A stretch of 64,000 bases of DNA, from sequence record NC_047770.1, one strand, 5' to 3'. Made by a program: the position numbers and the translations under genes. Numbering within the stretch: position 1 is the first letter of the stretch; every line of letters starts with the position of its first letter. The notes under the pieces are model-generated. The model searched no databases. It was not told where the DNA came from and saw nothing but the letters and a program-made list of their open reading frames with translations. This DNA is from Escherichia phage ESCO13. This document shows, piece after piece, positions 46,782-64,000 of this stretch.

Positions 46782-46958
46782 ATGTCTGAATTCTTCACAA
46801 TGGCTTTCTTAGGGATCTATCTGATTATTAGTGCTGTTGGCTTAATCATGTCTCTAATAGAGGAAATGGGAATTAAGTGGAATTGTGCATTCGGTATAGC
46901 TCTTATGCTCACTCCGGTTTGGATCTACATCTGCAAAGCAGTTGAACTCATTGGTTAA
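46782..46958 (+). CDS. small membrane protein
   Basis: Start at MSEFFTMAFLG; two hydrophobic helices. Confidence 0.45.
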   Translation: MSEFFTMAFLGIYLIISAVGLIMSLIEEMGIKWNCAFGIALMLTPVWIYICKAVELIG

Positions 46959-47745: not shown

Positions 47746-47910
47746 ATGATTTTAAACTTCATCATCAACTTGTGTTTGACATTGGGGTTACTCTGTGCAA
47801 TAGTATCCCCTTTGGTTGGTGAATATTGTTCTGAACTGGCGATGTTTATAGTTCTTGGTGCGGCTATTGCTAATATGTTTGTCGCTGCGATTTGTATGTT
47901 GTGGGAATAG
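47746..47910 (+). CDS. small membrane protein (below the ORF-track cutoff)
   Basis: 54-aa ORF MILNFIINLCLTLGLLCAIVSPLVGEYCSELAMFIVLGAAIANMFVAAICMLWE; RBS AAGGAGAG. Confidence 0.4.
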   Translation: MILNFIINLCLTLGLLCAIVSPLVGEYCSELAMFIVLGAAIANMFVAAICMLWE

Positions 47911-53241: not shown

Positions 53242-53299
53242 TTGACGTTCGCCAGGTGGCGGCATAATATTTACCACGTAGGGCGGCAATGGTGCCGCT
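53242..53299 (+). promoter_or_regulatory. promoter-hairpin cassette 1
   Basis: TTGACG-N17-TAATAT-TTACCACG-TAGGGCGGCAATGGTGCCGCT. Confidence 0.6.
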
Positions 53300-54215: not shown

Positions 54216-54773
54216 ATGGGCCGCGAATATGTGATCCAGTCTTGGGTAAAACATGAAGCAGATGATCCGCGCATCATTCCCGATCATCTTATCGATGAAT
54301 CCACGGGATATAGCGGTGAGCAAATAGGTAACAGATTAGCACGTAGTAACGGCAACGTAAAAGCGCGTTATGTGCGCCCTGGCTGGCTGGCAAATGGTAA
54401 CGCTGATTTATCCAGTGCGGAAGATGCGAGCGACGGCGCGAAAGATAATCCTTTGTACAAAGTTGATCCGGCTTTTCGTGTCCTGGATGAATACCCCAGC
54501 AAGATAGCGGCGCTCGATCAGGCCCTGGAAAGTAAGCGCATCACCTGGACCGCTTACAACATGGCAAAAAACGTACTTGATGGTAAATTGATTCAAGCTG
54601 AAAGAAAATTAGCCAAAATTGCAGCCATAGCCCAGGAGGAAGACGAGGAGACAACGGAAGAGGAAGAGTACGAAGAGATCCCGCCGTTGTTGTGTGTTGA
54701 TGCTTTTCCTGATTATCAGCCGACAGAGGAAGAAAAAAGGATCGCACTAGAAAACTTTGAAAATAGTCTTTGA
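54216..54773 (+). CDS. hypothetical protein with acidic C-terminal region
   Basis: 185 aa from the ATG at 54216 (RBS AAAGGTGG); second cistron of cassette 3; EEDEETTEEEEYEE stretch. Confidence 0.55.
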   Translation: MGREYVIQSWVKHEADDPRIIPDHLIDESTGYSGEQIGNRLARSNGNVKARYVRPGWLANGNADLSSAEDASDGAKDNPLYKVDPAFRVLDEYPSKIAALDQALESKRITWTAYNMAKNVLDGKLIQAERKLAKIAAIAQEEDEETTEEEEYEEIPPLLCVDAFPDYQPTEEEKRIALENFENSL

Positions 54774-54827
54774 CATATCGCCGCCACTGGCATAATATTT
54801 ACCACGTAGGGCGGCAATGGTGCCGCT
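54770..54827 (+). promoter_or_regulatory. promoter-hairpin cassette 4
   Basis: TTGACA (overlapping the upstream stop)-N17-TAATAT-TTACCACG-TAGGGCGGCAATGGTGCCGCT; near-identical to cassette 1. Confidence 0.6.
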
Positions 54828-54855
54828 CATAGTGAAATTATGCAAGAGGCTTACA

Positions 54856-54951
54856 ATGATTAATAAAGAAAATAGCTTGACGGTTGGAACGATTAACGCT
54901 ATCATTCTAGCCGTTCCATTTTGGATTGTAGTAGCGGCTATTATTTTCTAA
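54856..54951 (+). CDS. hydrophobic micro-protein (31 aa)
   Basis: MINKENSLTVGTINAIILAVPFWIVVAAIIF; RBS AGAGG 6 nt upstream. Confidence 0.4.
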   Translation: MINKENSLTVGTINAIILAVPFWIVVAAIIF

Positions 54952-54959
54952 AAATATTC

Positions 54960-55020
54960 TTGACAACGTTTTTTAATCTGATAAGATGTATCACATAGGG
55001 CGGCGGAATACTTCCCCGCC
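54960..55020 (+). promoter_or_regulatory. promoter-hairpin cassette 5
   Basis: TTGACA-N16-TAAGAT-GTATCACA-TAGGGCGGCGGAATACTTCCCCGCC. Confidence 0.6.
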
Positions 55021-55041
55021 AAAACAAAAAAGGGTAACACA

Positions 55042-55404
55042 ATGAGCAAGCAAATCAATACTATCATGTTAAACCTGGTATCCTTCCGCGATGATATGAA
55101 AAATTTACCACGTGAAACGGTTGATATTCATGTTTCAGCTTATCGCGCCCTTATTGACATGTTACCGCTAAAACGTGATCAACATGCCGCTAACATGATG
55201 CTTAATGCTATGCTTAAAAAGATGATTCAAACGGATCTCATCCTGGCGTATGAGTATCAAGGGCGCTTATATGCTACTTACAACAAGGCGGTACCTGGTC
55301 TGGGAAGTACCGAAGAGTTGCACGGCTTAAACCTGGATCAGAACACTTGGGATAGTATGCGCCGCGTTATGGTATGGGCCGAAAGCGGTAAAATTTACGA
55401 ATAA
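55042..55404 (+). CDS. hypothetical protein
   Basis: 120 aa. Confidence 0.55.
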   Translation: MSKQINTIMLNLVSFRDDMKNLPRETVDIHVSAYRALIDMLPLKRDQHAANMMLNAMLKKMIQTDLILAYEYQGRLYATYNKAVPGLGSTEELHGLNLDQNTWDSMRRVMVWAESGKIYE

Positions 55405-55409
55405 AACGG

Positions 55410-55466
55410 TTGACACTGTTTAAAATTCTGGTATAGTTTATCACGTAGGGCGGCAATGGTGCCGCC
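55410..55466 (+). promoter_or_regulatory. promoter-hairpin cassette 6
   Basis: TTGACA-N16-TATAGT-TTATCACG-TAGGGCGGCAATGGTGCCGCC. Confidence 0.6.
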
Positions 55467-55486
55467 AACAATAAAAGGTTAACATC

Positions 55487-55666
55487 ATGACTATCATTGC
55501 AAAAACTGAGATTATAGGTTTAGATTCGATCCTCCTGGCTTATGAGGAAACTTTAAAAATGTATGTAGTGACCTATGGTGATTATGTGCGTGAATACGAA
55601 TACATTGATCTTGCTTTCGAATGTTACATTCGCCAGGTCAATAAAGCCTATAACGATTATCGTTAA
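55487..55666 (+). CDS. small hypothetical protein (59 aa)
   Basis: MTIIAKTEIIGLDSILLAYEETLKMYVVTYGDY...; below the track cutoff. Confidence 0.45.
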   Translation: MTIIAKTEIIGLDSILLAYEETLKMYVVTYGDYVREYEYIDLAFECYIRQVNKAYNDYR

Positions 55667-55685
55667 AAGTTTTAGTCTTATACTA

Positions 55686-55738
55686 TTGACAATGAGTGAT
55701 AGTATAAGCATAATAACTTTTATCGGGAATACTTCCCA
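55686..55738 (+). promoter_or_regulatory. promoter-hairpin cassette 7 (variant)
   Basis: TTGACA-N17-CATAAT ... CGGGAATACTTCCC. Confidence 0.5.
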
Positions 55739-55763
55739 CTAACCAAAAAAAGAGAGTAATATC

Positions 55764-56129
55764 ATGGCTATTAATATCAATGTTTCCTCTTATGCTACCC
55801 TGGCTGACACGGCTAAAATTGAATTATCCAGCATTGAGGCGGTGCATATTAGCGCCCGTCGTTGGTTTCAACAGTCCTACGGTAACACATATTTTTCTTT
55901 AATGGTTGACGTTGAGATCGGCGGTAAACTGATCGAGGTGGTTAACGTTCCGTTTCAATATGGTTATGGTGATCATTTTGATACCGTCGCCCTGGAAGAA
56001 TTTAGCAAGGTTATTAATATGGAAGGTAAAGAGTTTTCACGCGGCGCGTATCTTTCCCGTTTTTGCCGTGACAATGGGATCACTGTATACAGTCATGCAA
56101 GCGATGTTAAACGTAAAAAAGATTTATAA
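55764..56129 (+). CDS. hypothetical protein
   Basis: 121 aa; RBS AGAGAG. Confidence 0.55.
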   Translation: MAININVSSYATLADTAKIELSSIEAVHISARRWFQQSYGNTYFSLMVDVEIGGKLIEVVNVPFQYGYGDHFDTVALEEFSKVINMEGKEFSRGAYLSRFCRDNGITVYSHASDVKRKKDL

Positions 56130-56135
56130 AAAGCA

Positions 56136-56194
56136 TTGACAGCACGAATAAAAAGAGTAAACTGTATTACATAGAGAGCGGGAACACTTCCCGC
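56136..56194 (+). promoter_or_regulatory. promoter-hairpin cassette 8
   Basis: TTGACA-N16-TAAACT-GTATTACA-TAGAGAGCGGGAACACTTCCCGC. Confidence 0.55.
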
Positions 56195-56218
56195 CTCACT
56201 GAAAAAGAGATTAACATC

Positions 56219-56458
56219 ATGGCTAAATCAAAAATGTTCTTAGGTCACAAAAATAAAACTCATTGGAATGTAAGCCTTTGGATTAATAACGACGAATCAT
56301 TATATCGGTTGGCGAAAGAATTTATCGCCGCTAATACTAATCGTAATGATGCTGCCCGTGATATGATGTTATTCCTGGAACAAACTGGACAAGATAAAAC
56401 TCCAGACGGTTTCAAGTATAGTAAAACTGCAATCCGTGCCGCGATGGTTGGAATGTAA
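56219..56458 (+). CDS. small hypothetical protein
   Basis: 79 aa. Confidence 0.55.
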   Translation: MAKSKMFLGHKNKTHWNVSLWINNDESLYRLAKEFIAANTNRNDAARDMMLFLEQTGQDKTPDGFKYSKTAIRAAMVGM

Positions 56459-56467
56459 TAAAAACAG

Positions 56468-56526
56468 TTGACAACGTTTAAAATTAGTGTAAGATGTATC
56501 ACATAGGGCGGGAAATGGTTTCCCGC
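56468..56526 (+). promoter_or_regulatory. promoter-hairpin cassette 9
   Basis: TTGACA-N16-TAAGAT-GTATCACA-TAGGGCGGGAAATGGTTTCCCGC. Confidence 0.6.
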
Positions 56527-56549
56527 TCACAACAGAGAGATTAAAGATT

Positions 56550-56777
56550 ATGGCTATCAATATTGTTCGCGTATCCGGCACCGTTGGCTATTCCCAGGTT
56601 GTAGCAGTTGTAACAAACAAAAAGATTAATGATGTATGTGAGATCTTGAATAAGTGGGCTATTGCTAATTTTGGAGAATATGCAAGCGTCGAGTACATCG
56701 AATCCTACCAGGTGCCGACCATCAGCCTAACCGATCTCAACGTTGATCGCCTGTTATGCCTGGATGAATTAAACTAA
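56550..56777 (+). CDS. small hypothetical protein
   Basis: 75 aa. Confidence 0.55.
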   Translation: MAINIVRVSGTVGYSQVVAVVTNKKINDVCEILNKWAIANFGEYASVEYIESYQVPTISLTDLNVDRLLCLDELN

Positions 56778-56784
56778 AATAATA

Positions 56785-56841
56785 TTGACAAGATAACTAA
56801 AATCAGTAAAATGTAATGCATAGGGCGGCAATAGTGCCGCT
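56785..56841 (+). promoter_or_regulatory. promoter-hairpin cassette 10
   Basis: TTGACA-N16-TAAAAT-GTAATGCA-TAGGGCGGCAATAGTGCCGCT. Confidence 0.6.
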
Positions 56842-56863
56842 CATAGTAAGAGGGATTATCAAA

Positions 56864-57079
56864 ATGGCTAATATCCGCACACTGTTAAAAAATGCAAGTC
56901 AAGTTTTATTTTCAGATGACGAGTATTTCAATAAAGACATTACAGGCGTGAAAAATTTAAAAGACGTTAAGGATGTAATAGGTATTCGAGGATCTTTACG
57001 TAAAGGTGACTACTACGGCAATAAAGTACAATATAAATTAAATCAGTCTTATGATTTTACTTTGACAATTATTTCATAA
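56864..57079 (+). CDS. small hypothetical protein
   Basis: 71 aa from MANIRTLLK (RBS AAGAGGGA). Confidence 0.55.
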   Translation: MANIRTLLKNASQVLFSDDEYFNKDITGVKNLKDVKDVIGIRGSLRKGDYYGNKVQYKLNQSYDFTLTIIS

Positions 57080-57085
57080 AACCGC

Positions 57086-57147
57086 TTGCAATCTTAATAA
57101 AATAAAGTAAACTGTATTACATCAAGGCGGCGGAATGGTCCACCGCC
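57086..57147 (+). promoter_or_regulatory. promoter-hairpin cassette 11
   Basis: TTGCAA-N16-TAAACT-GTATTACA-TCAAGGCGGCGGAATGGTCCACCGCC. Confidence 0.55.
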
Positions 57148-57171
57148 TAACAAAGAGAAGAGGAAAACATC

Positions 57172-57339
57172 ATGATCACTTTCGCTACCCGTGAAGCCGC
57201 TCGCAACGTTGCCCGTAAAGTTAACGCCGCCAACCTGGGCGCTACGCTTAAAGCCCCTGTAAAAGATGAATCAGGAAAATGGATCTTCCCTGGTCTGCGT
57301 CATGCTGACAAGTTAGGTACTTTAAGCCTTAAAAAATAA
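57172..57339 (+). CDS. small basic protein (55 aa)
   Basis: MITFATREAARNVARKVNAANLGATLKAPVKDESGKWIFPGLRHADKLGTLSLKK; below the track cutoff. Confidence 0.45.
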   Translation: MITFATREAARNVARKVNAANLGATLKAPVKDESGKWIFPGLRHADKLGTLSLKK

Positions 57340-57342
57340 TCG

Positions 57343-57380
57343 TTGACTTTTCGTTATAGCGCCTTATAATGGGCGCTATA
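57343..57380 (+). promoter_or_regulatory. consensus promoter TTGACT-N16-TATAAT inside a 9-bp inverted repeat
   Basis: TATAGCGCC-TTATAATG-GGCGCTATA (57355-57380) brackets the -10 hexamer; operator-like. Confidence 0.5.
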
Positions 57381-57413
57381 GAGAAGAGAAACCACTACTA
57401 ACAAGGAAACATC

Positions 57414-57635
57414 ATGATCACTTTCGCTATTGTCGCCGTTGTCGCTGGTCAGGTTTACATAAACGATACATTCACCACAGAAGACAAGGCCGCAGGAGAC
57501 ATAACCGCCGTTTACAATGAGTGCAAGGCAGTAGAAAGGATGTTAGCGCCTTGTATGCTAATGAGTGAACGCCAGGACGGGATAACAGTATTTACTAACA
57601 TTGAAACAGGGTACCAAATGGTAGTAACAAAATAA
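57414..57635 (+). CDS. small hypothetical protein
   Basis: 73 aa; shares the MITFA N-terminus with the preceding ORF. Confidence 0.55.
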   Translation: MITFAIVAVVAGQVYINDTFTTEDKAAGDITAVYNECKAVERMLAPCMLMSERQDGITVFTNIETGYQMVVTK

Positions 57636-57638
57636 AGC

Positions 57639-57695
57639 TTGACACGGATTTAATTTTTAGTAAACTGTTACACGTAGGGCGGGAATAGTTCCCGC
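57639..57695 (+). promoter_or_regulatory. promoter-hairpin cassette 13
   Basis: TTGACA-N16-TAAACT-GTTACACG-TAGGGCGGGAATAGTTCCCGC. Confidence 0.6.
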
Positions 57696-57714
57696 TCAAA
57701 AAGAGAGAAAGACC

Positions 57715-58068
57715 ATGAAAGCACAAAATGCAATTAAAGAGTACATCCTTGCCGCTATCGATTTTAATGATTACGGTATTACAACCGAAAAAGAGAAGAT
57801 CGCGGAATTGATGCGCCGTTTTAATTCCGAGTACTGGTACCCTGATAACCAATCACGTTTTAATTATAGTATTGTTAAAGCACTTGCATCATGGTTACAA
57901 GGCTTGCCATCAGATATCAATATCGCTTTCGAATATTGGGAAATTGATCGCCTGTTAACATCCTGGGGATACATTAAAGAGAATAGCAGCGATGATAAAA
58001 TCCAACGAGAAAGGGAAAATTATTGGCTTTATATTGCAGGCGTGATCCTTGCTTGCTCTTATGAATGA
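57715..58068 (+). CDS. hypothetical protein
   Basis: 117 aa. Confidence 0.55.
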   Translation: MKAQNAIKEYILAAIDFNDYGITTEKEKIAELMRRFNSEYWYPDNQSRFNYSIVKALASWLQGLPSDINIAFEYWEIDRLLTSWGYIKENSSDDKIQRERENYWLYIAGVILACSYE

Positions 58069-58074
58069 TAAACC

Positions 58075-58128
58075 TTGACAATTTTACAAAACAGTTTAAA
58101 TTAACAATATAGCGGCAATGGTGCCGCT
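58075..58128 (+). promoter_or_regulatory. promoter-hairpin cassette 14
   Basis: TTGACA-N16-TAAATT-AACAATAT-AGCGGCAATGGTGCCGCT. Confidence 0.55.
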
Positions 58129-58147
58129 CATATGAAGAGGAAACAAA

Positions 58148-58294
58148 ATGAATACATCTAATCGCGCAGAAAAAATTCAATCTTCCAAGATCCGCAAGGC
58201 CTGGAACGAGGAAGTGATCCGCAAAGGCGACAAGCGCAATAAAACAAAGCGCGGGAAGAGTGACAAATATAATTGGATGGATTTAGAGGATTAA
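58148..58294 (+). CDS. small basic protein (48 aa)
   Basis: MNTSNRAEKIQSSKIRKAWNEEVIRKGDKRNKTKRGKSDKYNWMDLED; RBS GAAGAGGAA. Confidence 0.45.
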   Translation: MNTSNRAEKIQSSKIRKAWNEEVIRKGDKRNKTKRGKSDKYNWMDLED

Positions 58295-58303
58295 CATAAC
58301 AAG

Positions 58304-58329
58304 GGGCGCACCAAGCGCCCTTTCTTTTT
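58304..58329 (+). terminator. rho-independent terminator
   Basis: GGGCGC-ACCAA-GCGCCC followed by TTTCTTTTT. Confidence 0.6.
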
Positions 58330-58350
58330 ACATGTAGAGGATAAACAAAG

Positions 58351-58536
58351 ATGACTTTAAGCGAGCTTAAAACAGCCTACAACGCAACGTTAAAAATAGC
58401 CGTGCGTTACCGTGACGAATACGGTTTTATTGCGCAGGGCGTGATCCTGGGCTTTTCTGACGATGGTTTGATCTATGTTGATGCACATCACAATAAGGTT
58501 AAACCTGAAAACGTCATTAGCATAAAATATCTTTAA
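58351..58536 (+). CDS. small hypothetical protein
   Basis: 61 aa; RBS GAGGA; no own promoter seen (read-through?). Confidence 0.5.
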   Translation: MTLSELKTAYNATLKIAVRYRDEYGFIAQGVILGFSDDGLIYVDAHHNKVKPENVISIKYL

Positions 58537-58542
58537 AAGTGG

Positions 58543-58600
58543 TTGACACCATAACCGGACCTGTTAAACTGTATTACATCAGGCGGGGAATAGTTCCCAC
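58543..58600 (+). promoter_or_regulatory. promoter-hairpin cassette 15
   Basis: TTGACA-N16-TAAACT-GTATTACA-TCAGGCGGGGAATAGTTCCCACC. Confidence 0.55.
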
Positions 58601-58620
58601 CATACAAAAAGGTAAATATT

Positions 58621-58827
58621 ATGATCACCGCAAAACAAGAAAAAATCATTATCGACGTTGCAGCCGTTGCCGCTATTGCTATTATTGGATCTTATTATGA
58701 CACCGCGCGTCCTTCCTCCTTGCATGAGGTCGCCGCCGTTGCATCAGTTGGCGTACTGTTTTACGTTGGTAAACGCTATTTATCACCAATGATTAACAAG
58801 CTGACACCGTGGAAAAATAAAGGTTGA
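58621..58827 (+). CDS. small membrane protein
   Basis: 68 aa; hydrophobic stretches IIIDVAAVAAIAIIGSYY and VAAVASVGVLFYV. Confidence 0.55.
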   Translation: MITAKQEKIIIDVAAVAAIAIIGSYYDTARPSSLHEVAAVASVGVLFYVGKRYLSPMINKLTPWKNKG

Positions 58828-58883
58828 TCCTGTTTTATATTGTGTTATAGTTATCGTGTAGGGCGGCAATGGTGCCGCGCCCT
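58824..58883 (+). promoter_or_regulatory. promoter-hairpin cassette 16
   Basis: TTGATC (overlapping the upstream stop)-N16-TATAGT-TATCGTG-TAGGGCGGCAATGGTGCCGCGCCC. Confidence 0.55.
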
Positions 58884-58898
58884 TTTGAGGATGCAATC

Positions 58899-59183
58899 AT
58901 GAGTAAAGCTAACACCGTGCTAATGTTTTCCCTGATTAATGATTCCGCTTACTTGTCCAACATGACGCAGGAGGGTAACACATTAACGGCAACATTCACC
59001 AATAAGCTTGACCGGGTGATCATCGTCTCACTGAAAACAGTTAGTAAAGGCTTTTACTCGTTAGCTTATCATTGGATCACCGATACCGATGAGACAAGCC
59101 AGGACTATAGCACCCCTTTCCCTGAATCAATGGCACGGGAGGTCATCGCCGCCGTTGTAAATGATGGTTTGTTTACTGCATAA
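58899..59183 (+). CDS. hypothetical protein
   Basis: 94 aa from MSKANTVLMFSL. Confidence 0.55.
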   Translation: MSKANTVLMFSLINDSAYLSNMTQEGNTLTATFTNKLDRVIIVSLKTVSKGFYSLAYHWITDTDETSQDYSTPFPESMAREVIAAVVNDGLFTA

Positions 59184-59201
59184 AATAATTTAGAAAAAGG
59201 C

Positions 59202-59258
59202 TTGCAATCATTTTGAGATAGTGTATATTTAATTCATAGGGCGGCGGGAATAGTTCCC
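59202..59258 (+). promoter_or_regulatory. promoter-hairpin cassette 17
   Basis: TTGCAA-N16-TATATT-TAATTCA-TAGGGCGGCGGGAATAGTTCCC. Confidence 0.55.
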
Positions 59259-59281
59259 AAAGCAAACGAGAGGATTACACG

Positions 59282-59401
59282 ATGAGCAAGTACACAGTAG
59301 AATACACGGTAGAAAATCCGGCAGTATCCGAAGGTAAAAAGATGACATTTGCCATCAGTATAATCGCTTTCGTTATCACTATCTTATCAATCATCTTATA
59401 A
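59282..59401 (+). CDS. micro-protein with C-terminal TM helix (39 aa)
   Basis: MSKYTVEYTVENPAVSEGKKMTFAISIIAFVITILSIIL; RBS GAGAGG. Confidence 0.4.
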   Translation: MSKYTVEYTVENPAVSEGKKMTFAISIIAFVITILSIIL

Positions 59402-59411
59402 GGTGCGTACT

Positions 59412-59573
59412 ATGAAAACAACAGACATTATCAAAGAGATCGCCCTTGCCGCTGACGTTGAGATCGAGGAAGTGATCGCGCTCAACCTTACAGAAAACGA
59501 TCTGCGCAACTATGAAGCGGAAAGCGTGAAAGCAAGCGGCGCGGTCCTGGCATATAATCCGGCTAACAAGTAA
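59412..59573 (+). CDS. small acidic protein (53 aa)
   Basis: MKTTDIIKEIALAADVEIEEVIALNLTENDLRNYEAESVKASGAVLAYNPANK; RBS AAGGTG. Confidence 0.4.
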   Translation: MKTTDIIKEIALAADVEIEEVIALNLTENDLRNYEAESVKASGAVLAYNPANK

Positions 59574-59582
59574 GGGGATAAC

Positions 59583-59693
59583 ATGAATCCGAAAGATATG
59601 CAAGCATGGAAAGGGTACGACGATCTAAGCGCCTTGCGCAATAAGTCAAGCCGTAACCTTAGACGGTTGGAAGCAAAGAAAAAGAAAAAATAG
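59583..59693 (+). CDS. small basic protein (36 aa)
   Basis: MNPKDMQAWKGYDDLSALRNKSSRNLRRLEAKKKKK; RBS AAGGGGA. Confidence 0.35.
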   Translation: MNPKDMQAWKGYDDLSALRNKSSRNLRRLEAKKKKK

Positions 59694-59694
59694 T

Positions 59695-59751
59695 TTGACA
59701 AGTCCGCCTAGTCTGATAATATGTATCTTGTAGGGCGGCAATGGTGCCGCT
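59695..59751 (+). promoter_or_regulatory. promoter-hairpin cassette 18
   Basis: TTGACA-N16-TAATAT-GTATCTTG-TAGGGCGGCAATGGTGCCGCT. Confidence 0.6.
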
Positions 59752-59771
59752 CACAAGAAGAGAGAAAAATC

Positions 59772-60056
59772 ATGAAAATCACAAAAAGCCTAACTAATTA
59801 TGCAGCACGTCGCGGATTATGTTTAACCGTTGAAAACTTAGGGAAAGAAGACTTTTTGTGTTTTTGGGAGCTTGAAAATGATTGCGAGTGGATGTTTTCT
59901 TATTCTATCTGCGAAGATCAAAACGGTTGTTTGTTAACCTGGCGCGGTAATATCTATTTACCGGAAGAAATTAAAGAAGAGTTACCAGGTACGATCATGA
60001 CAGAGAGACAGCTTAAGGAAGTGATCAATTTTGTAGGGCAAAACATTAAAAAATAA
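59772..60056 (+). CDS. Cys-rich hypothetical protein
   Basis: 94 aa from MKITKSLTNYAARRG; several Cys. Confidence 0.55.
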   Translation: MKITKSLTNYAARRGLCLTVENLGKEDFLCFWELENDCEWMFSYSICEDQNGCLLTWRGNIYLPEEIKEELPGTIMTERQLKEVINFVGQNIKK

Positions 60057-60057
60057 T

Positions 60058-60119
60058 TTGACAGTAGGCAAACAACGTAGTAAAGTTTATTACATAGAGC
60101 GGCGGAATGGTCCACCGCT
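60058..60119 (+). promoter_or_regulatory. promoter-hairpin cassette 19
   Basis: TTGACA-N17-TAAAGT-TTATTACA-TAGAGCGGCGGAATGGTCCACCGCT. Confidence 0.55.
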
Positions 60120-60141
60120 CACAACAGAAGAGAAACAAATC

Positions 60142-60312
60142 ATGATCCCGACTATGTTTTATGTATCGCGCAAAGGTCACAATATTTTTTGGTCTGAAGA
60201 TTTAAATGAAGCTATGACGTTTGCCCGTGATCGTGTTGCTATCGGTGGCGTTAATATCACCGTGACCGATGAAAACGGCATTGAATACTATAACGGCGAT
60301 GATGAAGAGTAA
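60142..60312 (+). CDS. small hypothetical protein (56 aa)
   Basis: MIPTMFYVSRKGHNIFWSEDLNEAMTFARDRVAIGGVNITVTDENGIEYYNGDDEE. Confidence 0.5.
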   Translation: MIPTMFYVSRKGHNIFWSEDLNEAMTFARDRVAIGGVNITVTDENGIEYYNGDDEE

Positions 60313-60318
60313 TCAACA

Positions 60319-60338
60319 AGGCGGGATTAATCCCGCCT
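60319..60338 (+). other. perfect 20-bp palindrome AGGCGGGATTAATCCCGCCT (promoter-less intercistronic hairpin)
   Basis: Preceded by TAATCAACAA; no -35/-10 pair and no U-tract. Confidence 0.5.
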
Positions 60339-60356
60339 ATATTAAAGGGTAATACA

Positions 60357-60494
60357 ATGAAAACTTTCAACGCAACAGCCTCGACAATTGGTTATATTAT
60401 TACAGTGCAAGCCGTGGATCTGGTAGCAGCAGCAAACAAGATTAAAAAGATGATCCCGCCAGGTAGTGAATTTTCCGTTTGGGAAGTAAAATAA
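60357..60494 (+). CDS. small hypothetical protein (45 aa)
   Basis: MKTFNATASTIGYIITVQAVDLVAAANKIKKMIPPGSEFSVWEVK; RBS AAAGGG. Confidence 0.4.
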   Translation: MKTFNATASTIGYIITVQAVDLVAAANKIKKMIPPGSEFSVWEVK

Positions 60495-60497
60495 ACC

Positions 60498-60559
60498 TTG
60501 ACAATAATTTGTTATCTGATAAAGTGTATTACGTAGGGCGGGGCAATGGTGCAACGCCC
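60498..60559 (+). promoter_or_regulatory. promoter-hairpin cassette 21
   Basis: TTGACA-N16-TAAAGT-GTATTACG-TAGGGCGGGGCAATGGTGCAACGCCC. Confidence 0.55.
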
Positions 60560-60577
60560 ATTAATGAGGGTAGAATC

Positions 60578-60682
60578 ATGTTAGAGAAAATTTTCACGGT
60601 TGTAATAGTGGGCCTGGCGTTATCGGTTGGAGTGGTTGCAACTATGGCTAACATGATCCTATCTTCCCACGGTATCGGTTAA
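60578..60682 (+). CDS. hydrophobic micro-protein (34 aa)
   Basis: MLEKIFTVVIVGLALSVGVVATMANMILSSHGIG; RBS GAGGG. Confidence 0.4.
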   Translation: MLEKIFTVVIVGLALSVGVVATMANMILSSHGIG

Positions 60683-60692
60683 GGTGAAACAA

Positions 60693-60908
60693 ATGATCAC
60701 GAACAAAACAGGCAAAACGGAATTTTTACGCGGCTTACAAGTTGGTAAGCCTGAGATCTGGCATTGCACGAAGTCCGCGCATAATGAAATGAAAGATTTC
60801 ACCGCTACTTTACAACGTGTTAAAATATCTATTACGCAGAAAAAAGCCTTATTAGTAGTAGAAAACGAGATCCCGCAAACCATTATTATTGTCGAGCGTA
60901 CAGCATGA
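60693..60908 (+). CDS. small hypothetical protein
   Basis: 71 aa from MITNKTGKTE (RBS AAGGTGA). Confidence 0.5.
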   Translation: MITNKTGKTEFLRGLQVGKPEIWHCTKSAHNEMKDFTATLQRVKISITQKKALLVVENEIPQTIIIVERTA

Positions 60909-61291
60909 AAACAGAAATCATTAACGAAATCATCAACGGCTATAAAGAAGCCTTTATTTTTGCTGAATCAGCAAGGGATCATGAAGGTAATTTTATAGAT
61001 GACATGACTGATTATGATTTTTCAGATCAAGCCCATCAACGGATCGCCCAGGATGTAACAGCCTTTATTAATGCTAATCTTGCCGCTATCTCTGAGGCAA
61101 TGAGCGACGGCGCAACAGCCAACCAGATCGGGAATGATTTACATTTTACCCGTAACGGTCACGGCGTAGGATTTTGGGATCGCCCTGAAATATACACCAC
61201 TAACACGGCGAACCGCCTAACAAATGCAGCTAAGTTTATGCCGAACGTGTCGGCTTACATTGGTGAAGATAATTTGATTTATATTGAATAA
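60905..61291 (+). CDS. hypothetical protein
   Basis: 128 aa; ATGA overlap. Confidence 0.55.
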   Translation: MKTEIINEIINGYKEAFIFAESARDHEGNFIDDMTDYDFSDQAHQRIAQDVTAFINANLAAISEAMSDGATANQIGNDLHFTRNGHGVGFWDRPEIYTTNTANRLTNAAKFMPNVSAYIGEDNLIYIE

Positions 61292-61297
61292 AAAGTA

Positions 61298-61354
61298 TTG
61301 ACACAGATCGCCAGTGTGCTAATATTTACCACGTAGGGCGGCAATGGTGCCGCC
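61298..61354 (+). promoter_or_regulatory. promoter-hairpin cassette 22
   Basis: TTGACA-N16-TAATAT-TTACCACG-TAGGGCGGCAATGGTGCCGCC. Confidence 0.6.
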
Positions 61355-61372
61355 GATAATGAGGAAAATAAA

Positions 61373-61672
61373 ATGGAAACTATCGCTATTGTTACCGTAG
61401 AAAAACTGGTTGTTGGTGATGTGTTCGCGTTAATGGTGCCTAACAGCAGCAAACTGGGCGCTTATGAAGTGATGGACCATAAAAATGAATCATTTGGCGA
61501 CGGTTGCACAATGGCGGTAAAATCCTTAAAGGATGGAATCATCCGCCAGGCTAACTGGCACAAAGGGAATCAAGTCGGTTTAATATCAGCTAATTTCTTG
61601 CCAGAAGAGCAAACGTTAGACCAACTATCAGGCGGTAAGACGTTAGCCGAACTACTGGAAACAGCGATCTAA
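61373..61672 (+). CDS. hypothetical protein
   Basis: 99 aa; RBS GAGGAAAA. Confidence 0.55.
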   Translation: METIAIVTVEKLVVGDVFALMVPNSSKLGAYEVMDHKNESFGDGCTMAVKSLKDGIIRQANWHKGNQVGLISANFLPEEQTLDQLSGGKTLAELLETAI

Positions 61673-61680
61673 TCAACAAA

Positions 61681-61696
61681 GGGGCGGCAACGCCCC
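61681..61696 (+). other. promoter-less intercistronic hairpin GGGGCG-GCAA-CGCCCC
   Basis: Preceded by TAATCAACAAA; no U-tract. Confidence 0.45.
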
Positions 61697-61716
61697 ACAT
61701 CAGAAAGGAAAAGATT

Positions 61717-61953
61717 ATGAGTATTGCAACAGTATTAAACGCCGTTAAAACCGCTGAATCATCCGGCTTGCATGTTGAGCTTATAGATCAACCAGGTGGC
61801 GATCTCCTTGTCCAGGTTTACCCGCCGAAAGTAGGGGATGATTATTATTGGGCTTATTCTGATACGTTCGAACAAGTAGACACGAAAGCGATCACGGCTT
61901 TTATTTTAAAAGCTATTGAAGAAAATAACTTTCATCATAACATCAATCAATAA
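61717..61953 (+). CDS. small hypothetical protein
   Basis: 78 aa. Confidence 0.55.
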   Translation: MSIATVLNAVKTAESSGLHVELIDQPGGDLLVQVYPPKVGDDYYWAYSDTFEQVDTKAITAFILKAIEENNFHHNINQ

Positions 61954-61962
61954 ACCATAAGC

Positions 61963-61978
61963 GGGGCGGTAACGCCCC
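61963..61978 (+). other. promoter-less intercistronic hairpin GGGGCG-GTAA-CGCCCC
   Basis: Same hairpin family as 61681-61696. Confidence 0.45.
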
Positions 61979-62007
61979 ATTAAACGCAATAGGAAGAGGA
62001 TAGACGC

Positions 62008-62292
62008 ATGAAAAACATGATCGCAGTAGTTGCCCTAGTTGTTGGTATTAACGCGCCTGTACTGGCTAATGAGTTGCCAGAATCCATCACGTTAACCGAT
62101 ATCAACGCAGTGAACCGGATCGGTGTTAATTATCGCCTATGCCTTGCCGCTAAAACTTTCCAGGATGGCACAACAGAGTACTACGGATTCGAGGGTATCC
62201 GGTGCGGTGAGCTTGCACGCGACCTTAAGGAAGATCCAGACCTTGAGGCCATACCGATGACCGTAAACGGTAAAGCTTACGTAAGCCGCTAA
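62008..62292 (+). CDS. secreted/periplasmic small protein
   Basis: 94 aa; signal peptide MKNMIAVVALVVGINAPVLA. Confidence 0.55.
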   Translation: MKNMIAVVALVVGINAPVLANELPESITLTDINAVNRIGVNYRLCLAAKTFQDGTTEYYGFEGIRCGELARDLKEDPDLEAIPMTVNGKAYVSR

Positions 62293-62294
62293 CC

Positions 62295-62429
62295 ATGAGA
62301 AAGGTAATCATCACAATGGGGATCGTAGTAGCAACGCTGGCGCTTATTCCCTTCATGGTTGAACATGTGCTGATCAATGTTGTCCTGGTAGTCAGCGACC
62401 TATTAGAAACGGTTGGCAACTGGTTTTAA
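62295..62429 (+). CDS. hydrophobic micro-protein (44 aa)
   Basis: MRKVIITMGIVVATLALIPFMVEHVLINVVLVVSDLLETVGNWF; starts 2 nt after the upstream stop. Confidence 0.4.
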   Translation: MRKVIITMGIVVATLALIPFMVEHVLINVVLVVSDLLETVGNWF

Positions 62430-62438
62430 GATAAATAA

Positions 62439-62468
62439 ACAGGGCTTGCAATAGTCCTGTTTTTTGTT
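62439..62468 (+). terminator. rho-independent terminator
   Basis: ACAGGGC-TTGCAATA-GTCCTGT followed by TTTTTTGTT. Confidence 0.55.
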
Positions 62469-62606
62469 ATACTTATTGAACGGGCGGCACCTGGGAGCAG
62501 GGGAAGATAATCACCGGAAGACCCCGCTATATATATTGATAGCTAACACCTATCAAACAACAAAACATCAAAGAGATAAACTATCAAATCTTTACAATCC
62601 CACCTA

Positions 62607-63965: not shown

Positions 63966-64000
63966 GCCCGAACAATGTTGATAGCTTTCGCCTATGAAAA

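Follow-up and report, generated by a model that had tools for sequence, protein, structure and literature searches.

Introduction

Imm and Sp of phage T4 are early, small inner-membrane proteins of 83–97 amino acids (aa), with Sp acting on the periplasmic side, and both are reportedly superinfection-exclusion proteins. Escherichia coli produces small inner-membrane regulators, such as AcrZ, MgrB, and MgtS, and phage M reportedly encodes LysM, a 37-aa MurJ inhibitor that serves as a single-gene lysis peptide. Here, we describe four open reading frames (ORF1 to ORF4), encoding peptides of 31–44 aa, in a 64,000-nucleotide (nt) stretch of Escherichia phage ESCO13 (NC_047770.1), the whole of which is hereafter called the window. 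We judge with moderate confidence that the four peptides are unrelated, clade-restricted, accessory micro-proteins with a single inner-membrane helix each, which are made early and directed at the host envelope.

Two of the peptides have counterparts in phage rV5, in which gp170 (44 aa) and gp173 are listed as "membrane protein, 1 TMD" (transmembrane domain) according to TMHMM/Phobius (Kropinski et al. 2013, Virol J 10:76, PMC3606486 Table S3). In T4-type phages, repeated units of a promoter and a stem-loop, named PeSL, flank small ORFans in a hyperplastic region and mediate the gain, loss, and exchange of modules there (Arbiol et al. 2010, PMC2839356; Comeau et al. 2014, PMC4122927). The PeSL stem-loop is described as terminating or attenuating upstream transcription and is located beside an AT-rich stretch that lies upstream of the -35 element (PMC2839356).

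Conservation and Coding Potential of the Four ORFs

An earlier sequence-only reading of the window had placed one hydrophobic helix in each of the four ORFs, and both the positions and the helices hold: the translations are exact, and the maxima of Kyte–Doolittle hydropathy over 17 residues (KD17) are 2.89 for ORF1, 2.95 for ORF2, 2.70 for ORF3, and 2.54 for ORF4. These are the top four values among the 33 scored genes of the surrounding gene array. Hydropathy alone is nevertheless at chance level, as 14 of the 386 window ORFs of 20–60 aa that begin with ATG (3.6%) reach a KD17 of at least 2.4, and these 14 are mostly obviously non-coding frames.

Since an open frame of 31–44 codons after an ATG is not rare and equally hydrophobic small ORFs occur at this rate, the four ORFs could be taken for chance frames in the non-coding spacers between promoter cassettes. 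This reading is scarcely credible and is effectively refuted by conservation. Set against roughly 286 related records, the tblastn matches comprise 110 phage records for ORF1, 73 for ORF2, 227 for ORF3, and 131 for ORF4, nearly all at full length, with ORF3 and ORF4 reaching into the Vequintavirinae. The sequence-only reading had offered a lack of conservation in related phages as grounds for refutation; the frames are conserved there, and this test does not refute them. All four frames remain open and hydrophobic in diverged relatives at a synonymous divergence (pS) of ~0.5–0.7, and ORF2, ORF3, and ORF4 keep equal length. The high-divergence cases are nepoznato for ORF2 and, for both ORF3 and ORF4, three phages of another subfamily (Vequintavirinae), namely rV5, isim, and nimi. 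The substitutions fall mainly on codon positions 1 and 3 and are fewest at position 2, and the ratio of nonsynonymous to synonymous divergence (pN/pS) is 0.3–0.5.

For each divergent pair, we placed the observed number of substitutions randomly in 20,000 trials and counted a success when the frame stayed open, the hydropathy was at least as high as observed, and the amino-acid changes were no more numerous than observed. Successes made up less than 1.4e-3 of the trials, and often less than 5e-5, in every divergent pair and for all four ORFs. In addition, the PHROG profiles matched by ORF2, ORF3, and ORF4 have exactly the lengths of the ORFs, the spacing of the Shine–Dalgarno (SD) sequences of ORF1 to ORF3 is canonical and identical to that of neighboring genes, and each of the four peptides keeps a specific motif outside its hydrophobic core. 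We are therefore highly confident that the four ORFs are real, translated membrane-peptide genes, a conclusion that comes from position and conservation and not from hydrophobicity. All four families are clade-restricted.

Putative Early-Gene Array and Promoter-Hairpin Cassettes

The ~9 kb around the four ORFs shows 95–99% nucleotide identity to Phapecoctavirus genomes (Mt1B1_P17, ESCO37, REC, and tuntematon; Stephanstirmvirinae), and rV5-like Vequintavirus genomes give weaker nucleotide matches to the same ~9 kb. Judged by its sequence, the window is that of a phAPEC8-like coliphage, a Phapecoctavirus. From ~53.2 kb to the end of the window we counted 34 genes, all small and all on the plus strand; among the 33 that were scored, the median is 73 aa, and seven fall below 50 aa.

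Most genes of the array are preceded by a cassette that consists of a promoter (TTGACA-N16/17-TAnnnT), a gap of ~10 nt, a GC hairpin, a GAGG-type SD, and the ATG. About 20–24 copies, all on the plus strand, lie between positions 53242 and 63460. The hairpin, typically GGGCGG...CCGCC with a folding energy of -9 to -21 kcal/mol, is located at the predicted 5' end of each cassette transcript, and most copies lack a T-run. A search of the whole window against Rfam matched no known RNA family, so that the four ORFs are not accounted for by a known RNA.

ORF1 to ORF3 each directly follow a sigma-70 promoter and 5' hairpin as first cistron (Table 1); three of the four ORFs, and not two as had been proposed, thus have a cassette of their own. 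The claim that all four possess credible ribosome-binding sites stands for ORF1 to ORF3, whose GAGG sites form anti-SD duplexes of -5.8 to -6.1 kcal/mol, level with those of neighboring genes. It fails for ORF4, where the duplex at the first ATG amounts to only -0.6 kcal/mol and translation appears to be coupled to the preceding gene.

Table 1. Features associated with ORF1 to ORF4 in the window (plus strand throughout; UTR, untranslated region)
Feature	Position	Strand	Description
ORF1 cassette, sigma-70-type promoter	54770..54798	+	TTGACA-N17-TAATAT, 10/12 matches
ORF1 cassette, 5'-UTR hairpin	54809..54828	+	GGGCGGCA-ATGG-TGCCGCTC; 5' UTR fold -18.0 kcal/mol (ViennaRNA)
ORF1	54856..54951	+	31 aa, MINKENSLTVGTINAIILAVPFWIVVAAIIF; SD AAGAGG at 54844-54849, duplex -5.8 kcal/mol
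ORF2 cassette, weaker promoter	59202..59229	+	TTGCAA-N16-TATATT, 9/12 matches
ORF2 cassette, degenerate hairpin	~59244-59263	+	5' UTR fold -9.4 kcal/mol
ORF2	59282..59401	+	39 aa, tail-anchored; SD GAGAGG at 59268-59273
ORF3 cassette, promoter	60498..60525	+	TTGACA-N16-TAAAGT, upstream TG
ORF3 cassette, 5'-UTR hairpin	60536..60559	+	-15.7 kcal/mol
ORF3	60578..60682	+	34 aa; SD GAGGG at 60566-60570
Partner gene	62008..62292	+	94-aa protein; N-terminal signal-peptide-like segment (MKNMIAVVALVVGINAPVLA, then NE), two conserved Cys
ORF4	62295..62429	+	44 aa; no SD; starts 2 nt after the partner stop codon (TAAccATG)
Intrinsic terminator	62437..62468	+	10-bp stem and T-run, -15.9 kcal/mol; closes the operon that ends with ORF4

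Structure and Start Sites of ORF1 and ORF2

The ORF1 peptide begins with a polar N-terminus (MINKENSLTVGT), followed by a hydrophobic helix at residues ~13–31 (nt 54892–54948); it is tail-anchored in the sense that the helix runs to the C-terminus. The conserved motif, KENSLTVGT(I/L)N, lies in the polar part. Conservation extends down to Klebsiella phage 05F01, in which 10 of the 13 residues of the polar head are identical against 5 of the 15 in the helix, and the permutation p ranges from at most 1.4e-3 to 5e-5. ORF1 matched no PHROG family. A 44-aa version of ORF1 starting at 54817 was rejected, as its ATG lies in the hairpin loop and has no SD; the same loop ATG recurs before many cassette genes, which indicates that it is not a start codon. 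Relatives carry ORF1 as an annotated gene (Mt1B1_P17 gp031 and tuntematon gp044), and in EP57 it is annotated as 44 aa from the hairpin-loop ATG.

In ORF2, a conserved polar N-terminus (MSKYTVEYTVENPAVSEGKK) precedes the helix at residues ~22–39 (nt 59345–59398). Its motif reads KYTVEY(T/S)(V/T)EN(P/V)AV(S/T)EG and is followed by basic residues. In the comparison with nepoznato, pN/pS is ~0.37 and the permutation p is below 5e-5, and the cassette of ORF2 is conserved in the compared loci L001, L002, L003, L004, and L010 (phiWec190). ORF2 matches phrog_10979 over its full length (E 4.9e-23, profile length 39), a family named "membrane protein" in the category moron/host takeover, the category being a label and not a tested function. 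A HMMER search against 1.84 billion representative proteins returned nothing beyond the cluster of ORF2 itself, a variant with a frameshift, and a repetitive protein regarded as junk.

Structure of ORF3 and Its Relation to the Downstream Gene

ORF3 consists of the residues MLEK, a helix at residues ~5–28 (nt 60590–60661), and the conserved C-terminal motif ATMxNMILSSxGIG; the tail after the helix is short and polar. The rV5 protein has equal length and 56% identity, and the identity is unevenly distributed: the C-terminal motif shares 12 of its 14 residues and the N-terminal portion 6 of its 20. All 227 records are full length, those of the rV5-like phages at 50–59% identity; pN/pS is ~0.4–0.5, and the permutation p is 1e-4 to 3e-4. 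ORF3 covers the whole profile of phrog_14631 (E 1.7e-22, profile length 34), and an IMG/VR scan with the ORF3 alignment gave four close loci and no new diversity. The gene lacks an annotation in Mt1B1_P17, tuntematon, and phAPEC8 but carries one in Schickermooser, in rV5, and in many genomes of Vequintavirus. For rV5 ORF173, the start given in the annotation, which yields 46 aa from the hairpin-loop ATG, is probably wrong.

The stop codons of ORF2 and ORF3 overlap the SD of the next gene, as TAAGGTG at 59399 (gene 59412–59573) and at 60680 (gene 60693–60908), respectively. Both ORFs are first cistrons, and each is followed by a gene lacking its own promoter; this would fit translated leader ORFs for which the act of translation matters, as a means to open the mRNA or to couple ribosomes to the following gene, and the peptide has no function. 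We consider this very improbable, since the amino-acid motifs and the hydrophobicity are kept across a pS of 0.6–0.7 and the downstream genes have adequate SD sites of their own; moreover, no downstream gene is coupled to ORF1, as the gene after it possesses its own cassette.

ORF4, Its 94-aa Partner, and the rV5-Type Operon

ORF4 starts with MRK and continues with a hydrophobic helix at residues 4–22 (nt 62304–62360), the conserved motif VLVVSDL, and a tail that varies among homologues (LLETVGNWF, LVLYINSLF, or LLSSIGTLF). AlphaFold2 (AF2) predicts one continuous helix from residue 2 to 43, with a predicted local distance difference test (pLDDT) score of 92. ORF4 shares 61% identity and equal length with its rV5 homologue (permutation p < 5e-5) and matches the whole profile of phrog_16005 (E 1e-29, profile length 44). 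In several relatives, the ORF4 gene and the gene upstream of it overlap as ATGA, which indicates translational coupling of ORF4 to that gene. A 37-aa version beginning at Met8, with an SD of -4.6 kcal/mol, was judged less likely: residue 8 is Leu or Ile in homologues and Met1 is invariant, so that Met1 is the start of the family. The phAPEC8 annotation starts at Met8 and gives 37 aa. A promoter-like site at 62446 (TTGCAA-N16-TATACT) lies within the terminator that follows ORF4.

The upstream gene encodes the 94-aa protein with a signal-peptide-like segment, which occurs in 171 records and lies directly upstream of ORF4 in every record checked. Its full-length homologues in both subfamilies share at least 79% identity, and homologue searches with this partner and with ORF4 reached the same phage clades only. 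The AF2 model of the partner (pLDDT 79.5) shows a three-stranded meander and a helix.

In rV5 (L005 3290–4420, minus strand of the record), a single cassette drives one operon of five genes, encoding ORF3, proteins of 71 aa and 94 aa, ORF4, and finally a 63-aa protein, and the terminator that closes it is the one also seen in the window. The gene order ORF3, 71 aa, 94 aa, and ORF4 is kept in rV5 and nimi and, with insertions, in the window, where three genes and a second promoter cassette are inserted between ORF3 and ORF4. The single operon of rV5 suggests that ORF3 and ORF4 may belong to one envelope-directed module. More specifically, ORF3, ORF4, and the 94-aa periplasmic protein could prevent superinfection much as T4 Imm/Sp do, with the membrane peptides anchoring or positioning the periplasmic protein and the injection of incoming DNA or the penetration of the cell wall being impeded. 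The five-gene operon and its conserved order, the translational coupling of ORF4 to the periplasmic protein gene, the position of the ORF3 and ORF4 motifs on the predicted periplasmic side, and the early sigma-70 promoters are all consistent with this possibility. However, Pfam and NCBIfam reveal no similarity to Imm, Sp, or a known exclusion protein, and the fold of the partner is without a match. The genes are also separable, because their record numbers differ (ORF3 227, ORF4 131, and partner 171), and the window has its second cassette and three extra genes between ORF3 and ORF4. On balance, we regard such a module as possible but unlikely. It is quite doubtful that the rV5-type operon constitutes an undescribed early envelope system which blocks superinfection or disarms a membrane-embedded host defense and which has spread between the Stephanstirmvirinae and Vequintavirinae as promoter-hairpin-bounded modules.

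Modularity and Exchange of Cassette-Gene Units

Phage alia (L006 570–640) contains an empty cassette, made of a promoter, a hairpin, and an SD-like AAGGTG followed at once by the next promoter, with no ORF, at the position that ORF1 and a 120-aa gene occupy in the window. In phiWec190 (L010 1079–1162), an extra unannotated hydrophobic micro-ORF of 27 aa (MFTTSLFFAINFIPGFRAALEIILWTL) lies between the cassette and the ORF1 homologue. The Vequintavirus nimi (L015), compared with window positions 60480–60910, carries a window-type cassette and ORF3 at 88–100% identity and switches to rV5-type sequence (95–100%) at approximately window position 60756, inside the 71-aa gene. This mosaic junction indicates that ORF3 and its cassette were exchanged between phage subfamilies. 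The cassette-gene units behave as modules, and the ORFs are accessory and mobile.

Existing Annotation

The four ORFs had been presented as micro-proteins missed by the ORF track, and as a claim of novelty this does not survive: identical peptides, PHROG families, and the 2013 rV5 paper already list them. Because they stand in public annotations, "missed" reflects only the length cut-off of that track. The exact peptides of ORF1, ORF2, and ORF4 are present in NCBI and UniRef, and the exact ORF3 sequence is found only in an auto-called public set, with entries of 94–97% identity in NCBI. The annotations of relatives include ORF1, ORF2 (named "membrane protein"), and ORF4; the GenBank counterparts include phAPEC8_004 and phAPEC8_0015, Mt1B1_P17 gp031, gp016, and gp004, and tuntematon gp044 and gp029. 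The orthologues of ORF1 and ORF2 are 93–100% identical, and those of ORF3 and ORF4 are 50–77% identical with the same length and synteny; rV5 gp173 and gp170 are the orthologues of ORF3 and ORF4, respectively, with full-length similarity and conserved gene order. The four genes are, therefore, already known as predicted hypothetical or membrane proteins, and they represent no new gene or mechanism.

Neighboring Genes and Other Features

In annotated relatives, the neighbors of the four ORFs are labeled "hypothetical protein" or, in a few cases, "membrane protein", and no lysis gene is among them. One neighbor bears the label "phosphoribosylpyrophosphate synthetase", which was copied by homology onto a 70-aa ORF. 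The array (plus strand) further includes a 36-aa peptide with a KKKKK end at 59583–59693, which is not hydrophobic and is annotated in relatives, and a very basic, non-hydrophobic 48-aa micro-gene at 58148–58294. The 68-aa protein at 58621–58827 has two hydrophobic segments, belongs to phrog_30003, and is likely another membrane protein of the early array. Outside the cassette array, two small plus-strand ORFs at 46782–46958 and 47746–47910 (58 and 54 aa) have two hydrophobic segments each and SD-like sequences.

GC hairpins without a promoter, mostly also without a T-run, are located at 60319–60338, 61681–61696, and 61962–61979, directly upstream of internal operon genes, and may be RNA processing or stabilizing sites. 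A palindrome, TTGATAGC-N7-CTATCAA/CTATGAA, is repeated at 62533–62557 and 63975–63999 in two promoter-less spacers downstream of terminators; the spacer 62474–62606 folds no better than shuffled sequence (z = -0.94). Among the genomes compared, near-identical ones are labeled as phages of Campylobacter, Acinetobacter, Pseudomonas, Serratia, and Klebsiella, host labels that look doubtful in a coliphage clade with 95–100% identity.

Proposed Mode of Action

We propose that the host sigma-70 RNA polymerase would transcribe the four genes right after infection from near-consensus promoters, with transcripts starting a few nt before the stable GC hairpin, which is likely a 5' stabilizer. ORF1 to ORF3 would be translated as first cistrons from ordinary GAGG SD sites, and ORF4 by coupling to the stop codon of the gene for the secreted or periplasmic 94-aa protein. 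Each peptide would then insert into the host inner membrane, where its conserved motif may bind and alter a host envelope protein early in infection; this would serve to take over the host, to exclude competing phages, or to protect the envelope, and not to control when lysis occurs. The candidate binding motifs are the N-terminal KENSLTVGT of ORF1, the N-terminal KYTVEYTVENPAVSEG of ORF2, the C-terminal ATMxNMILSSxGIG of ORF3, and the central VLVVSDL of ORF4, which most likely would act with its periplasmic 94-aa partner.

The motifs are kept better than the transmembrane segments, and this suggests binding to a specific partner instead of an unspecific perturbation of the membrane. Judged by the charges flanking the helices, ORF2, ORF3, and ORF4 probably have their N-termini in the cytoplasm, which would place the ORF3 motif and the ORF4 tail in the periplasm; the ORF2 motif adjoins KK and is thus probably cytoplasmic. 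We give about even chances to the proposal that the peptides act early on host membrane targets, and any single specific class of target is unlikely to be the right one. Superinfection exclusion, holin or antiholin modulation, and inhibition of host membrane transporters and receptors, the functions suggested in the sequence-only reading, form a generic prior, and the sequence data do not separate exclusion from host-protein inhibition.

Several observations weigh against an early, envelope-directed role. The early timing follows from the promoter type only, and the topology from the flanking charges only. Pfam, NCBIfam, and the PHROG function fields returned nothing informative for the four peptides and four neighbors. 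The only NCBIfam match, to YkgR, is insignificant (E 0.41, 10 bits against a cut-off of 40), and no family model of type I toxins or of known small membrane proteins from enterobacteria (for example, Hok, Ldr, Ibs, TisB, ShoB, and YkgR) was significantly matched. The AF2 model of the 94-aa partner has no match in the PDB at E <= 1e-3 (Foldseek), and we found no study of the expression, localization, or function of the four peptides in the Phapecoctavirus and Vequintavirus literature. Furthermore, the pN/pS values represent only moderate purifying selection and, together with the narrow families, are compatible with weakly selected ORFans.

Small peptides with a single TMD are typical of holin/antiholin systems, and the four peptides could accordingly be holins, antiholins, or holin-accessory peptides that modulate the timing of lysis. 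This is very improbable. The ORFs lie in an array of predicted early genes with sigma-70 promoters, at a distance from all annotated lysis genes and among small hypothetical neighbors, a context that disfavors the holin/antiholin option. They lack the charged cytoplasmic C-terminal tail of the holin type, as ORF1 and ORF2 end inside the helix and the tails of ORF3 and ORF4 are uncharged or acidic, and no holin family was matched in Pfam or PHROG.

For accessory micro-proteins that may act on the host envelope, characterization could reveal host membrane targets of the phAPEC8- and rV5-like coliphages used in therapy and biocontrol, and could partly explain the more than 30 tiny early genes in these phages. 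At present, our analysis confirms that the existing micro-ORF annotations are sound, revises some of the start sites given in them, and draws attention to ORF3 as a gene that is often left without annotation.

Comparison with Known Systems

The four ORFs resemble T4 Imm and Sp in that all are small envelope proteins, predicted to be early in the case of the ORFs, of a lytic myophage, and the side on which Sp acts resembles the predicted location of ORF4 with its periplasmic partner. However, Imm and Sp are larger, and none of the four ORFs shows a sequence or family match to them (Pfam and NCBIfam, E <= 1). AcrZ, MgrB, MgtS, and LysM are closer in size: they have 30–50 aa and one helix and bind a larger membrane protein, which is the action proposed for the ORFs. 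They differ in showing no homology to the ORFs, which are predicted early genes of a large myophage and not a lysis gene of a single-stranded RNA phage.

The genetic arrangement compares with the PeSL units. In the window, the hairpin is located ~10 nt after the -10 element and before the SD, the order of promoter and hairpin being opposite to that of PeSL, and the units belong to the Stephanstirmvirinae and Vequintavirinae, not to T4-type phages. Nevertheless, both arrangements comprise a repeated, strong sigma-70-like promoter and a stable stem-loop that flank ORFans in a plastic region, a likeness that extends to the empty cassette of alia and the exchange of ORF3 in nimi.

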